Shown one piece after another: positions 1 through 12,923 of a DNA stretch of 20,336 bases. The stretch spans positions 1-20,336 of the IMG/VR virus record IMGVR_UViG_2617271085_000008. One strand, 5' to 3'. The DNA is from a virus (lineage: Duplodnaviria > Heunggongvirae > Uroviricota > Caudoviricetes). Within the stretch, counting starts at the first letter, position 1. Every line of letters starts with the position of its first letter. A program made the position numbers and the translations under genes. Below the pieces are notes generated by a model. The model worked only from the letters and a program-made list of their open reading frames with translations. It had not been told where the DNA came from and did not search any database.

Positions 1-240
1 AAATGATTCTTTAAAATACCTGACATGTAATACAGAAAAAACACAAAACCATACCTTAAATAAAAACCTCATCATCAAGCAGATATGCATGGATAAACTA
101 CAAGACGAGATATAAACCACCCTGCATTTAAATAAACAATAAACAACATCAGAAAAATAATTCTGCTCTATGGTTTACAATCAAAAATATCATTTATACT
201 TTTCAGAACATCACCAGCAAGGCATAAACAAGGAAACTAA

Positions 241-576
241 ATGAAGTGGATTGTGATTGATACAGTTATCCAGCCATCATGCGGAATATCTTTTTCAGTC
301 ATATGGAGTAAAATAAAATTAATAATCTGGTATCAATCGGATGCTTTCTTACCTCCTGAAAGTATATTTACACTGACTCACACAGGCATCATGCTCAATA
401 ACAAAGTGCTACCTGTAACCATTTACAACGTAGTACCATTCAATAAAACATTATGGAATTTAATCAAAAACAGCCAGGAATGCCCTACAAATACAGATAA
501 CGTATTGAATGAATGCTTTAATAACCGTTGCACTCTGCAAATATGTCCTTATGGGCTAAAACAACAAAGTCCATAA
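241..576 (+). CDS. Hypothetical protein (111 aa) in AT-rich DNA; may be spurious
   Basis: ORF with AAGGAAA Shine-Dalgarno 5 nt upstream of ATG; very AT-rich and Cys-rich; no recognisable motifs. Confidence 0.2.
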
Positions 577-600
577 GCAGTTTACTCACATCTGACAAAA

Positions 601-856
601 TCAATATAAACAGCCCCTCCGGAGAGGGGCTGGAGAGTGGCGCTATGTGCCATTGCATGGTGCCGGGTGCCTCCCGGTGAATTCAGTACCAGCACCTGAA
701 TCCGCGATTATCCCATATACCTACTCGCTGATTACCCCTCCGCACAGGGGGATTCACCATGCGAAATTTTTTAACAAACTTCCCGCCGGCCAGACAATAA
801 TCGCCAGCCTGAATTATGAGCAACGTGGCATTTTACGGGAAAACTGTTTTCTGCAG
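601..856 (-). repeat. Structured repeat unit 1 of 3 (candidate sRNA) ending in intrinsic terminator
   Basis: Perfect GC hairpin AGCCCCTCCGGAGAGGGGCT (612-631) followed on the minus strand by GTTTATATT; conserved stems CCGGG/CCCGG (663-677) and ATTCAG/CTGAAT (681-701); conserved box GGGGATTCACCATGCGA (~750-765); paralogous to units 2 and 3. Confidence 0.5.
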
Positions 857-1069
857 TAAAAAGGCCCGCCGGAGCGAGCCTGGAAGGATAGCGGTCATGT
901 GATGCCGGTTTCCCGGTAACTCAGCATCGGTATCTGAGTCAACGTTTTCTCTACTGGGTCATTTCCGATACGTTCCGCCTTCCGGCAGACTTTCATCACG
1001 TCAGAAAATATAGCACCCTGAGTAACAGGACAGTACTCAGAATTCAGGAAACTGTGACACATCCTGCAC
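857..1069 (-). repeat. Structured repeat unit 2 of 3 (more divergent copy) ending in intrinsic terminator
   Basis: Hairpin GGCCCGCCGGAGCGAGCC (863-880) followed on the minus strand by TTTTTA; stems CCGG/CCGG (913-924 region) and ACTCAG/CTGAGT (919-939) at equivalent positions to units 1 and 3, with a compensatory base-pair change. Confidence 0.45.
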
Positions 1070-1310
1070 AGAAAAGCCCCTCCGGAGAGGGGCTGAAGTA
1101 TAGCCTAATTTCTGTCTGTCGCATGGTGCCAGGGGCCTCCCGGTAAATTCAGCCTGTCTACTGAATTTGCATGTTCTCTGGATCATACACTTTGCCAGAT
1201 GCCCCGCCGCTGAGGGGGATTCACCATGCGATGTAATTTTTAACAAATTCTCCGGCAGCCAGACAATCATCAAGCTGTGGAATTGTGAGGTATTTAAAAA
1301 TTTCAACGGG
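1070..1310 (-). repeat. Structured repeat unit 3 of 3 ending in intrinsic terminator
   Basis: Hairpin AGCCCCTCCGGAGAGGGGCT (1075-1094), identical to unit 1, followed on the minus strand by TTTTC; stem AAATTCAG/CTGAATTT (1145-1168); box GGGGGATTCACCATGCGATG (~1214-1233). Confidence 0.5.
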
Positions 1311-1465
1311 TAACTGATACCCTGCTAATCGCCTGATGCTTTCTTTTTCAGCAACGGGAAAGCAACAACCACACACCCGCCACCAAAACACCATCAGACA
1401 GCACCGACATTATCCGGCTGCTGAAGTCCACCATCACCACCAGAAACAACAGGAGTGCAACCACA

Positions 1466-1509
1466 GCTGCTTAGAAGGCAATTGCTCTGTCCGGCTGAGC
1501 TAACAACGC
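1466..1509 (-). tRNA. tRNA-Arg(UCU)-like 5' portion; truncated or degenerate (possible pseudo-tRNA)
   Basis: Minus-strand sense GCGTTGT-TA-GCTC-AGCCGGACA-GAGC-A-ATTGC-CTTCTAA-GCAGC gives acceptor 5' strand, D-arm and anticodon arm with anticodon TCT (resembles argU-type tRNA); I could not find a T-arm or a matching 3' acceptor strand downstream. Confidence 0.35.
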
Positions 1510-1522
1510 ATGATGCAGATAA

Positions 1523-1599
1523 TGGACCGCCATCGGGGACTTGAACCCCGCGCAGCCAGCTTCGAAGGCTGGCGCTCTATCCCGATGAGCTAATGGCGG
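1523..1599 (-). tRNA. tRNA-Arg (anticodon UCG)
   Basis: 77-nt cloverleaf on minus strand: acceptor CCGCCAT/ATGGCGG, D-stem GCTC/GAGC, anticodon stem CCAGC/GCTGG with loop CTTCGAA (UCG), T-arm CGGGG-TTCAAGT-CCCCG, discriminator T; CCA is genome-encoded. Confidence 0.8.
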
Positions 1600-1606
1600 T
1601 ATGTGA

Positions 1607-1682
1607 TGGTGGCCCTTGCTGGATTTGAACCAGCGACCTGGCGATTATGAGTCGCTCGCTCTCACCACTGAGCTAAAGGGCC
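1607..1682 (-). tRNA. tRNA with CAU anticodon; Ile2 (lysidine-type, ileX/ileZ-like) or Met
   Basis: 76-nt cloverleaf GGCCCTTTAGCTCAGTGGTGAGAGCGAGCGACTCATAATCGCCAGGTCGCTGGTTCAAATCCAGCAAGGGCCACCA; closely resembles E. coli ileX-type tRNA as recalled from memory; anticodon loop CTCATAA. Confidence 0.8.
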
Positions 1683-1731
1683 GGAAGCAGAATAATAATG
1701 GTGCGTAATTAATTCTGCAATCTCATCCGTT

Positions 1732-2781
1732 TCAAACGATTAAATCCTGAACTTCCCTGACTGTCTGCTCAAAACGTCCGGTCTCCAGTTCAACGCCAAT
1801 CGCACGACGCCCGAGCGCCAGTGCAGCTTTTACCGTTGAACCTGAGCCCATAAAAAAATCTGCAACCAGGTCACCCGGACGACTGCTTGCGCTGATTATC
1901 TGCTGCAGCATTTCTGCCGGTTTTTCGCACGGATGTTTCCCGGGATAGAACTGCACCGGTTTATGTGTCCACACATCCGTGTACGGCACCTGCGCCGTCA
2001 CACCAAAATACCGCCGCAGATGCTTATATTCACTCTGCAGCTCCACATACTGCCGGTTCAGTGACGTATACGTATCCACCAGCTGGTGGTGGGGCTTTTC
2101 CAGTTCACCGCGCTGATGTTTCTCTTCTGCCACCCGGGCAAACAGCGACTGTAATTTCAGATAATCGCTTTCGTTCGGTAGCTGCCACTGACTGGCACTG
2201 AACCAGTGCGACACCATGTTTTTCTTTCCTGTGGCATCTGCAATCTGTTTTGCCGTTATCCCCAGGGCCGCGCGCGCATCACGAAAGTAAGAAATCAGCG
2301 GGGCCATCACATGCTGTTTCAGTGCACTGCCCTTCGCCGCATACCCGGCATCTTTCGGACGATACGGCCCCTGATAATGTTCCGCGAACAGAATGCGCTC
2401 TGTGGCGGGGAAATACGCCCGCAGGCTTTCCTTGTTGCATCCGTTCCAGCGTCCGGACGGCTTCGCCCAGATAATATGGTTCAGCACACTGAAGCGTTCA
2501 CGCATCATGATTTCGATATCAGATGCCAGGCGATGACCACAGAACAGGTAAAGACTTCCGGCAGGTTTCAGCACCCGCCAGAACTGCGCCAGACACTGGT
2601 CCAGCCACTTCAGGTAATCATCGTCGCCCTTCCACTGGTTATCCCAGCCCTCAGGCTTCACTTTAAAGTACGGCGGGTCCGTGACTATCAGGTCAACAGA
2701 ATTTTCGGGTAACGACCGGATAAATTCCAGGCAGTCGGCGTTGATTAACTCACAACTGGATATTTTTACAGTATTAGCCAT
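1732..2781 (-). CDS. DNA methyltransferase, beta-class amino-MTase (N6-adenine or N4-cytosine; DPPY family)
   Basis: 349-aa ORF; motif IV DPPY (LIVTDPPYF) near N-terminus and motif I FFMGSGST near C-terminus, the circularly permuted order typical of beta-class N6A/N4C MTases. Confidence 0.8.
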   Translation of the reverse strand: MANTVKISSCELINADCLEFIRSLPENSVDLIVTDPPYFKVKPEGWDNQWKGDDDYLKWLDQCLAQFWRVLKPAGSLYLFCGHRLASDIEIMMRERFSVLNHIIWAKPSGRWNGCNKESLRAYFPATERILFAEHYQGPYRPKDAGYAAKGSALKQHVMAPLISYFRDARAALGITAKQIADATGKKNMVSHWFSASQWQLPNESDYLKLQSLFARVAEEKHQRGELEKPHHQLVDTYTSLNRQYVELQSEYKHLRRYFGVTAQVPYTDVWTHKPVQFYPGKHPCEKPAEMLQQIISASSRPGDLVADFFMGSGSTVKAALALGRRAIGVELETGRFEQTVREVQDLIV

Positions 2782-2931
2782 AGATCAATAAGCACTTCTC
2801 TGATAGGCTCATACCGCTTTTGCGCAAAGCAGATGGGCCTGAGGTTTGCTTGTGACCCCAACGCATGAGCAGATGGCTGGCAGGTGCCGCTAACACCCAC
2901 CAGCCGCCCATTACCACAAATAAAAAAGCCT

Positions 2932-3129
2932 TCACTGAGGAAGGCGTCTGTAACAACCGAACTGATAATCTGCCAGACCCGCCATAACAAGCTGGGTCAG
3001 TATTAGCTGGCAGCGTTCGCGTGAAAGGTAAGTATTCTGCGCAATTTCCCCGACGGTCGCCGGTTCGGTGACGCTTAATTCATTAAACACCACTCTGGCA
3101 GTTTCGGTCATATCCTGCTGTTTTAGCAT
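2932..3129 (-). CDS. Small hypothetical protein (65 aa), possible DNA-binding protein; start chosen at internal ATG
   Basis: Longer ORF 2932..3366 has no convincing start; internal ATG at 3129 preceded by AAGGGA; product MLKQQDMTETARVVFNELSVTEPATVGEIAQNTYLSRERCQLILTQLV looks helix-turn-helix-like; weak. Confidence 0.3.
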   Translation of the reverse strand: MLKQQDMTETARVVFNELSVTEPATVGEIAQNTYLSRERCQLILTQLVMAGLADYQFGCYRRLPQ

Positions 3130-3252
3130 GTCTTTTTCCCTTTTCTGGTTAACGTGACATACCAATAACTCTTGTCTGAAAAGCCAGCAAGCTGAAAGAC
3201 CGGTATTCGCAACCACCAGCACGTTTAACGTACTGCGCCGTTTTTCGGACAC

Positions 3253-3276
3253 AAAAAACCGCCTGGCGGCGGGTTT
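3253..3276 (-). terminator. Intrinsic terminator-like hairpin (mainly minus-strand, possibly bidirectional)
   Basis: CCGCC-TGGC-GGCGG stem-loop (3259-3272) flanked by AAAAAA (3253-3258) and TTT (3274-3276); on the minus strand the hairpin is followed by TTTTTTGTG. Confidence 0.4.
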
Positions 3277-3321
3277 AAGCTGTGTGGCGTAGTAACCACT
3301 CTTAACACGATATAATATTTT

Positions 3322-3350
3322 TTGCGTACGCGTTATAGTTTTCTTACAAT
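3322..3350 (+). promoter_or_regulatory. Candidate sigma70 promoter for the DUF262-HEPN operon
   Basis: TTGCGT (3322-3327), 17-bp spacer, TACAAT (3345-3350), about 30 nt upstream of the ATG at 3383; a perfect TATAAT also occurs at 3311-3316 without a good -35. Confidence 0.35.
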
Positions 3351-12542: not shown

Positions 12543-12923
12543 AGTGACATCCTCATGTGCGAATTTTGAAAACTCACCACATGGGACGCCAATCACAGAG
12601 GTGGTGAGACGTACAGGGTTGGCGTAACCGGTCGCACATGACCCCGGCGCATCTTTCGATGCCCCTGCACGCCCCACCATAATTTGGATGTGAGGAAACG
12701 TGCGCAAAAAAACCGCTGAAGCGCGGTTATGCGCATGTGCGAATTTCAGGACGCCAATCCCGGCACCCGCTTTATAAGGTGCGGAGACAGTGTAACGTCC
12801 CGAAATTGCAGAATCAATATTTGGTCTTGGAATGATCATATAGCTGCTGATATCTTTAGAACTGTTCTTGGATGTTTCGGAGCCGTTTTATGCGAAACAG
12901 CTCCCCGTTATTGATGTTGAGTG

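Follow-up and report, generated by a model that had tools for sequence, protein, structure and literature searches.

The DNA considered here, referred to below as the window, is the whole stretch of 20,336 nucleotides formed by positions 1 to 20,336 of the tailed-phage record IMGVR_UViG_2617271085_000008 (IMG/VR), and on its minus strand, at 601-1310, it carries three head-to-tail units, all within 710 bp. It is judged probable that these are three separate genes for small RNAs (sRNAs) from the STnc100/PasD superfamily, arranged in tandem in a lambdoid prophage's moron slot and acting as base-pairing RNAs. By their sequences, units 1 and 3 belong to the known sRNA family STnc100, and unit 2, which lies between them, together with the tandem arrangement goes beyond what has been catalogued. 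Three separately promoted base-pairing sRNAs of different specificity are the most likely function of the locus.

Every unit closes, on the minus strand, with a GC hairpin and a U-tract, as had been claimed in an earlier sequence-only reading of the window. A terminator scan of the first 3 kb gave 10 sites, compared with 3.1 +/- 1.7 in shuffles, and the best three minus-strand terminator-like sites of positions 1-3000 were 632..611, 881..862 and 1094..1075. The repeat finder put the same hairpins into one three-copy repeat family with start-to-start spacing of 250 and 213 nt. All three hairpins have stems of 8-9 bp with 6-7 GC pairs and a UCCG loop, followed by a U-rich run; that of unit 2 is homologous to the other two, with two pairs changed on both sides. 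The sequence-only reading had also reported identical 20-bp hairpins and a shared box in units 1 and 3, and both were recovered: the 20-nt cores at 612-631 and 1075-1094 are identical, and the box GGGGATTCACCATGCGA stands at 748-764 and 1215-1231. Other boxes common to these two units in the repeat finder output are GCATGGTGCC..., CCCC..GGGGGATTCACCATGCGA and TTTTTAACAAA... The elements of the array, from unit 3 to unit 1, are the following.

1066..1229, minus strand: unit 3, canonical STnc100-family sRNA gene; predicted RNA from G1229 to the U-tract at ~1070.
1237..1266, minus strand: unit 3 promoter-like element (predicted), with -35 TTGTCT at 1266..1261 and extended -10 TGTTAAAAA at 1245..1237.
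1096..1120, minus strand: unit 3 variable linker GACAGACAGAAAUUAGGCUAUACUU, putative seed region, linker type T8 of ~33.
1075..1094, minus strand: unit 3 intrinsic terminator hairpin, followed by UUUCU; its core equals that of unit 1.
About 855..1001, minus strand: unit 2, strongly diverged STnc100-like sRNA gene, of a lineage below the Rfam threshold.
1007..1015, minus strand: unit 2 promoter-like element (predicted), extended -10 TGCTATATT, kept in both unit-2 variants.
883..896, minus strand: unit 2 variable linker GACCGCUAUCCUUC, CU-rich and anti-Shine-Dalgarno-like, invariant between both unit-2 variants.
862..881, minus strand: unit 2 intrinsic terminator AGGCUCGC-UCCG-GCGGGCCU, followed by UUUUA, from the terminator scan.
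602..762, minus strand: unit 1, canonical STnc100-family sRNA gene, matching Rfam RF02076.
767..797, minus strand: unit 1 promoter-like element (predicted), with -35 TTGTCT at 797..792 and extended -10 TGTTAAAAAA at 777..768.
633..654, minus strand: unit 1 variable linker AAUGGCACAUAGCGCCACUCUC, type T1, with its 3' CUCUC fully unpaired.
611..632, minus strand: unit 1 intrinsic terminator, followed by UUUAUAUU.

The family identity of the outer units was given by Rfam, where RF02076 carries the full name 'Gammaproteobacterial sRNA STnc100'. Unit 3 (1259..1066) scores 138 bits and unit 1 (790..602) 132.5 bits, in both cases over model positions 1-206, which is about three times the gathering score of 47. 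The statement of the sequence-only reading that no known sRNA family was recognised is therefore wrong for units 1 and 3, and its claim of novelty falls with the match to a known family; only unit 2 lies below the threshold. In a sensitive scan of window 500-1500, unit 2 (1030..855) reached 30.0 bits against the required 47, with E = 1.8e-4, so that it is not a curated STnc100 member and is a structural homologue only. The same scan of 500-1500 returned no credible family other than STnc100, and no match to AgvB (RF02702) or AsxR (RF02703) at E <= 10; window-wide, neither of the two was matched at the gathering score. The match to unit 3 takes in ~30 nt of the promoter, and the Rfam STnc100 model probably includes this much promoter sequence. 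A second covariance model, seeded from unit 1 alone with an explicit structure (P1, P2, P4, P5 and terminator), scored unit 3 at 79.7 bits and unit 2 at 39.7 bits (E = 2.8e-7 in 0.9 Mb). Units 1 and 3 share 65% pairwise identity; unit 2 shares about 50% with each of them and with PasD.

Folded alone to its minimum free energy (MFE), each unit forms P1, P2, a variable P3, P4, P5, a single-stranded linker and the terminator. In the 5' scaffold of ~105 nt per unit, P1 pairs the extreme 5' end and encloses P2, P3, P4 and P5, and the STnc100 consensus architecture, a long-range closing helix around hairpins and then a terminator hairpin, is found in all three units. P1 is long-range, its nucleotides 1-8 (GCAUGGUG) pairing with CACCAUGC, and the counterpart in unit 2 is ACGUGAUG with CAUCACAU. 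P2 is CCCCU/AGGGG, as opposed to UCUGCC/GGCGGA in unit 2, and P5 is CCGGG-AGGCA-CCCGG, as opposed to CCGG-GAAA-CCGG in unit 2. The P4 stem is GAATTCAG...CTGAATCC in unit 1 (680-704), AAATTCAG...CTGAATTT in unit 3 (1146-1169) and AACTCAG...CTGAGT in unit 2 (917-941); it contains the compensatory change ATTCAG/CTGAAT (units 1 and 3) to ACTCAG/CTGAGT (unit 2) which had been read from the sequence before, and compensatory changes between unit 2 and units 1/3 occur also in P1, P2 and the terminator. The MFE of unit 1 is -69.8 kcal/mol, ~3.4 standard deviations below the shuffled mean. The linkers are the exposed part of the molecules, with mean unpaired probabilities of 0.63, 0.97 and 0.83 in units 1, 2 and 3, compared with ~0.4 for the remaining RNA (in unit 3, 0.83 compared with 0.35 for the rest).

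The fold is kept in a wider set of relatives. When IMG/VR was scanned for the 5' box, 120 prophage loci were obtained; the unit-1-seeded model had 120 matches at E <= 0.005, with unit 3, unit 2 and PasD among them, and covariation was computed on the 68 distinct sequences among these 120 relatives. In the 68, standard pairs are formed by 97.6% of cells, compared with 35-51% when the partners are slid, and 26 of 35 pairs change on both sides, compared with 8.7 +/- 1.9 in shuffles; none of 500 shuffles reached the observed pair-change count or any of four other covariation measures. Compensatory changes were recorded for 8/8 pairs of P4, 9/9 of the terminator, 5/8 of P1, 4/5 of P2 and 0/5 of P5, which is nearly invariant and without covariation. 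Separate support for covariation is provided by the two unit-2 variants, which are 91% identical: P2 passes from UCUGCC/GGCGGA to CCUGUC/GGCAGG with pairing preserved, and the lone P1 mismatch of the window's unit 2 is a Watson-Crick pair in the other variant. The covariation is much stronger than the sequence-only reading had noticed, and the view, taken there, of an sRNA array under selection on RNA structure rather than coding is borne out by it, as well as by the promoter-like element and terminator which each unit has of its own. MAFFT alignments of the units were set aside for structure work, as the arms of P2 and P4 were out of register, and no claim is made for a pseudoknot of 3-4 bp between the P5 loop (GGAG), which is near-invariant, and the CU-rich 3' end of the linker. 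It was also observed that the near-invariant P5 loop GGGAGG lies 11 nt 5' of a conserved AUG (window 656-672 and 1122-1139, minus strand), in a manner resembling a translation start buried in helices.

Upstream of the canonical units, the DNA carries a -35 TTGTCT and an extended -10 TGTTAAAA; unit 2 has instead the extended -10 TGCTATATT. A predicted promoter-like element precedes nearly all canonical units among 50 distinct upstream sequences, all such promoters being consensus matches only. The plus-strand promoter-like sites at 771-798 and 1240-1267 were rejected as independent signals, since they are the reverse complement of the minus-strand -35/-10 elements. A candidate CRP site was seen further upstream of the units (window ~812-835, 1045-1070 and 1275-1300, minus strand). 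Its core TGTGA-N6-TCACA was matched at 8 or more of 10 positions in 39/60 distinct upstream regions, compared with 4% of shuffles, and in 38/60 the centre of the match lies at -60.5 or -61.5, where class I sites classically stand. Of the two halves, the right one, TCACA, is conserved and the left one (TTTTA) is weak. Since these upstream regions are related to one another, the site is a lead and not evidence.

Unit 2 represents a lineage of its own. It is present in 673 of 5426 complete Escherichia coli genomes (~12%), with 341 copies at >=99% identity and 334 at ~91% over the RNA itself, none of which is annotated; the second variant, at other loci, scores 30.0-30.1 bits with RF02076. An unbiased scan of IMG/VR with a unit-2-specific 24-mer gave 115 loci and, with the window, 116 copies, of which 103 lie between two canonical units, 9 run into the end of a contig and 4 are truncated with an upstream neighbour only. 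Among these 116 copies the lineage is never solitary. Its array partners, named by linker type, are T8-T9-T1 here and T1-T6-T4 or T8-T9-T13 elsewhere, and the spacers within such arrays are constant (64-67 and 91-92 nt). Among the strains with an array are E. coli NCCP15648 and, for T1-T6-T4, E. coli 55989. Single units are the commonest arrangement of the family (82/95 sites), and tandem arrays of 2-4 units recur, with two units in locus L072 and four in locus L008. The latter array (2266-3350, minus strand) is the largest seen, its four tandem STnc100 units scoring 76.6-131.9 bits, all above the gathering score. It lies downstream of two tRNAs, and two of its units are without the AUG in the P1 3' arm.

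The conserved scaffold bears ~33 linker sequences and 40 P3 regions. Linkers are 14-25 nt long and wholly different between the three units. Linker T1, that of unit 1, is the commonest (37/120) and is found unchanged with six P3 regions as low as 46% identical, and one P3 region is paired with seven different linkers. Because the same linker occurs with six P3 regions and the same P3 region with seven linkers, the sequences indicate that P3 and pre-terminator-linker cassettes are reassorted by recombination within the conserved helices. A wider proposition can be put forward only tentatively, and is rather doubtful at present: that the STnc100/PasD superfamily as a whole consists of modular recombining cassettes, with a scaffold and two reassorting specificity modules, fixed arrays of 2-4 genes and a hidden unit-2 lineage. 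The sample of relatives is redundant and dominated by E. coli prophages. The unit-2 lineage, its non-solitary state, the tandem arrays and the modular variation appear to be without a description in the searchable literature. A search of 596 Gb of genome contigs with GCATGGTGAATCCNCC, whose fifteen specified bases are too few for that size, found chance matches in unrelated phyla only.

In the late operon of an E. coli lambdoid prophage, the array occupies the place downstream of P_R' where morons are inserted. Many E. coli strains have, in chromosomal prophage regions, DNA that is 100% identical to window 560-1720, and at least 80% of this stretch is present in 624 of 5426 complete E. coli genomes. 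One such region is annotated in RefSeq, with the following succession on the strand that is transcribed: RusA, antitermination protein Q, a hypothetical protein, a DNA methyltransferase (window 2781..1732), tRNA-Ile(CAT), tRNA-Arg, a small open reading frame (ORF) of the DUF3927 type, the array, the convergent iraM, a SASA/NanS-type esterase, holin, lysozyme and other lysis genes. Stx phages carry stx in this slot. When morons are defined as elements with an autonomous promoter and terminator within the late operon (Juhala et al. 2000), the position and the terminators of the array fit, and its promoters are consensus matches only.

Much of what can be said about the behaviour of these RNAs comes from homologues. 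Few sRNA families are annotated as often as STnc100 (PMC9029176). In strain EDL933 there are 11 STnc100 loci, all of them transcribed, and STnc100_4 was confirmed by Northern blotting (PMC5331693). A copy located ~75 nt downstream of stx2B in Stx2 phages (PMC12370729) overlaps the Hfq-binding sRNA EcOnc27/sRNA103 (PMC12711010, PMC4104026, PMC7873438), which in enterohaemorrhagic E. coli (EHEC) was verified by Northern blotting and Hfq-CRAC (PMC7873438). Overexpression of EcOnc27/sRNA103 raises fimZ and espA transcripts by a mechanism that is unknown (PMC12711010; PMC7873438), and the stx2-adjacent copy was statistically linked to the clinical outcome of O157 infection (PMC12711010). Like units 1 and 3, STnc100/EcOnc27/sRNA103 of the EHEC strains Sakai and EDL933 has the closing helix, the P2/P4/P5 hairpins, the terminator and the position in the lambdoid late region. 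The copies of EDL933 are >=27 kb apart and hence not tandem (PMC5331693), in contrast to the three units packed into 710 bp here.

Diverged relatives are PasD1 and PasD2 (Pearl Mizrahi 2021; Zhu 2026) of the enteropathogenic E. coli strain E2348/69, which are Hfq-dependent RNAs of 172-173 nt validated by RIL-seq, with the seed UGUGAG just upstream of the terminator, in the linker (PMC8550237). A common ancestor of PasD and STnc100 was proposed in a 2026 preprint (bioRxiv 10.64898/2026.05.13.724894), which describes the Pas/PasD copies as dispersed and single, not tandem. For the present comparison the PasD sequences were recovered from the Table S6 coordinates of PMC8550237 and the RefSeq record. 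The slot of the array is also that of PasD1/PasD2 (EcOnc13 in EHEC), with the DUF3927 ORF immediately preceding them and esterase or holin following, and the location between Q/DUF3927 and the esterase/holin genes of a lambdoid prophage holds for the array as well. Common to PasD and these units are P4, the closing helix and the 5' box GCAUGGUGAAUCC. PasD differs in having no P5 and in a 45-nt linker with UGUGAG; this seed is absent from all three linkers here (AAUGGCACAUAGCGCCACUCUC, GACCGCUAUCCUUC and GACAGACAGAAAUUAGGCUAUACUU). Global identity of PasD1/PasD2 with any of the three units is 45-49%, and no BLAST-level likeness of the units to PasD1/PasD2 of E2348/69 was found. The PasD loci also remain below the STnc100 threshold with 41.4 and 37.7 bits, unit 2 being lower still (30), and the unit-1-seeded model gives them only 23-25 bits. 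For PasD2 the 5' end has been mapped and falls on the G of GCAUGGUGAAUCC (PMC8550237 Table S6); with this box the STnc100 closing helix opens. By analogy, the RNAs of units 3, 2 and 1 would start at 1229, ~1001 and 762.

From these likenesses a course of events may be proposed. In the lysogen, each unit would be transcribed from its own sigma-70 extended -10 promoter and transcription would stop at the unit's own terminator. The 5' end, being base-paired in P1, would stabilise the RNA. The three RNAs would base-pair in trans, each with variable modules of its own, so that a single locus would have three target specificities. Once the prophage is induced, RNA polymerase modified by Q would pass all three terminators and reach the lysis genes. 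Transcription, the size of ~160-200 nt, Hfq binding and the position of the seed in the linker (that of PasD) are here taken from the homologues, by analogy.

Several points weigh against three base-pairing sRNAs. For an Hfq-dependent sRNA a long 3' U-tail and an accessible seed are expected; the hairpins are strong and the linkers accessible, but the short or interrupted U-tracts have runs of 3-5 U (UUUAUAUU in unit 1, UUUUA in unit 2, UUUCU in unit 3), which is poor for classical Hfq 3'-end binding and may permit read-through. The promoters, 5' ends and termination of all three units are predictions by analogy. The invariance of P5 suggests a sequence-specific role of the scaffold which is unexplained by the seed model. 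For canonical STnc100 RNAs no target has been shown to be direct, and the function of the family is listed as unknown (PMC9029176); some EDL933 copies have ribosome footprints, with coverage values up to 3.2, that are unexplained (PMC5331693). Finally, the alignment used for covariation had been fitted to the structure of the model and contains many close relatives, so that the figures overstate independence; the structure is nevertheless secure because of the slid-partner controls and the number of pair types.

The weak U-tract of each terminator would make stacking functionally sensible, and in the late operon the array immediately precedes the genes for esterase, holin and lysozyme. It could be supposed on this ground that the units are a cis-acting terminator or insulator stack which keeps the lysis genes silent in the lysogen behind the constitutive upstream promoters (P_R', the tRNA and methylase morons) and is ignored by Q-modified polymerase, the RNAs being by-products; StxS is an example of how termination products of this operon can be by-products of antitermination control (PMC7547250). 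Such an explanation is unlikely, since every unit brings a conserved promoter that points at the lysis genes, counter to insulation, and since the ~105-nt scaffold is conserved with compensatory changes in P1, P2 and P4 that a terminator alone does not need. Single units are, moreover, the commonest arrangement, and the homologues accumulate as stable Hfq-bound RNAs. An insulating side-effect of the terminators may still exist. Equally improbable is a function residing in the scaffold and not in the linker, be it an RNA that binds protein or acts as a decoy (for instance as a ligand of ProQ, or by means of the invariant P5 loop GGGAGGCA) or a sponge of core sRNAs similar to AgvB/AsxR. The near-invariant P5 without covariation and the invariant J1/2 (AAUC) do show constraint at the level of sequence. 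Highly structured RNAs with a short U-tail are more typical of ProQ ligands, and the units answer to this description. Anti-sRNA sponges also occupy the same slot in EHEC phages (PMC4104026). On the other side, the Rfam models of AgvB and AsxR have no match, unit 2 has a GAAA P5 loop and AAAG in J1/2 and yet is kept in 12% of genomes, linker alleles remain unchanged across diverged scaffolds, and the PasD seed maps to the linker. A CsrA sponge was rejected, as GGA motifs are not enriched (5, 2 and 4 observed, ~3 expected).

It is very unlikely that the units encode small proteins or dual-function RNAs, in which the AUG of the P1 3' arm would have the P5 loop GGGAGG, 11 nt before it, as its Shine-Dalgarno sequence. 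GGGAGG and AUG are conserved in 52 of 55 relatives, the ribosome coverage of some EDL933 copies (PMC5331693) would be in keeping with translation, and PGAP or phage records put 'hypothetical protein' or 'TciB' coding sequences over this DNA. However, 50 of 52 frames have no stop before the terminator end, which makes the terminated RNA a non-stop message with a C-terminus set wholly by whatever DNA follows. The AUG is missing in three units, the frame is not fixed with respect to the terminator (the three possible frames have 36, 11 and 5 cases), most differences between related linkers are non-synonymous, and the Shine-Dalgarno-like sequence and the AUG are both inside helices, P5 and P1. The non-coding character asserted in the sequence-only reading is supported also by the overlapping ORFs, none of which matches Pfam or NCBIfam, and without stops, frame conservation, sequence conservation or such a match the small-ORF and dual-function idea was rejected. 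Least probable of all, and hardly to be credited, are non-functional repeats, whether duplicates in decay or scars left by recombination where modules of the mosaic lambdoid phages meet. A mosaic junction is known at this slot, and units and cassettes are reassorted between phages, but 97.6% of pairing is kept with 26 pairs compensatory, promoters and terminators are retained in every unit, units 1 and 3 preserve the fold with only 65% identity, and the homologues are abundantly expressed (PMC5331693).

Three base-pairing sRNA genes are accordingly preferred, and they can be set beside other known systems. Hfq-bound sRNAs were reported in the moron site of at least 8 Sakai prophages (Tree et al., PMC4104026), and the AgvB/AsxR anti-sRNAs and the 'sRNA dyads' of that site (Tree et al. 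2014) occupy the same slot downstream of P_R'. AgvB and AsxR are built, as these units are, of a conserved module and a short variable specificity module, but they measure 51-60 nt, are encoded convergently on the opposite strand and are unrelated in sequence; the convergent partner here is the protein gene iraM. OmrA/OmrB, PrrF1/PrrF2 and Qrr1-5 are likewise head-to-tail paralogous sRNA genes with their own promoters and terminators and with conserved and divergent segments. These tandem siblings are core-genome genes whose seeds are largely shared, whereas the present units are phage-borne, 50-65% identical, with entirely different linkers and reassorting cassettes. HnrS (EcOnc10-12), which is 66 nt long and encoded in several copies in the prophage late region, proved to be another sRNA.

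The neighbourhood of the array offers some further observations. A full-length IraM anti-adaptor gene (window 241-576, plus strand; NF007393, 162 bits, cutoff 121) is convergent with the array, with 35 nt between its end and the terminator of unit 1; iraM sits where EHEC phages have the convergent anti-sRNA AsxR or AgvB. A prophage-borne anti-adaptor of RssB could stabilise RpoS in lysogens. Over the units PGAP places nothing but a pseudo 'hypothetical protein' antisense to unit 1 (window 647-772, plus strand). Coding sequences called over the sRNA DNA include 'TciB' in phage records (H19, H23 and H24 among them) and E2348C_RS28255 antisense to PasD1. Public calls over the units are probably spurious ones on structured non-coding DNA. 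The DUF3927 ORF (window 1348-1464, minus strand) has 28 aa as annotated, or 38 aa from a GTG start, and is shorter than the 52-aa versions preceding PasD1/PasD2 in E2348/69; it is the constant left-hand neighbour of the sRNA slot. The tRNA at window 1607-1682 (minus strand) with anticodon CAT is tRNA-Met for ARAGORN and tRNA-Ile for RefSeq. Because of the RefSeq annotation as tRNA-Ile it is taken as an ileZ-like, lysidine-dependent tRNA, as in Stx phages; tRNA-Arg(TCG) lies beside it at 1523-1599. Far from the array, a C4 antisense RNA (RF01695, 75 bits; window 12597-12684, minus strand) adjoins isrK (RF01394, 62 bits; 12706-12782, minus strand). The two make up a P1/P7-type c4/ant immunity module inside a lambdoid prophage, and the pair is also present in the related locus L080 (6553-6740).

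The finding is largely explained by a known family and is useful mainly as a lead for the dissection of a widespread one. The arrays correct the view that the superfamily multiplies only via separate prophage acquisitions. Should the modular proposition be true, the occurrence of the unit-2 type solely between two canonical units would point to functional interdependence, for instance co-transcription by read-through past terminators that are weak, or a coordinated control over the three sets of targets. In the stx slot, prophages would in that case possess a compact and evolvable sRNA locus with several specificities. A widely annotated family that is without an established function gains in this way a divergent lineage missed by annotation pipelines, recurrent tandem arrays and exchangeable cassettes, and these are handles for the study of its function: segments to mutate, strains to profile and alleles to compare.

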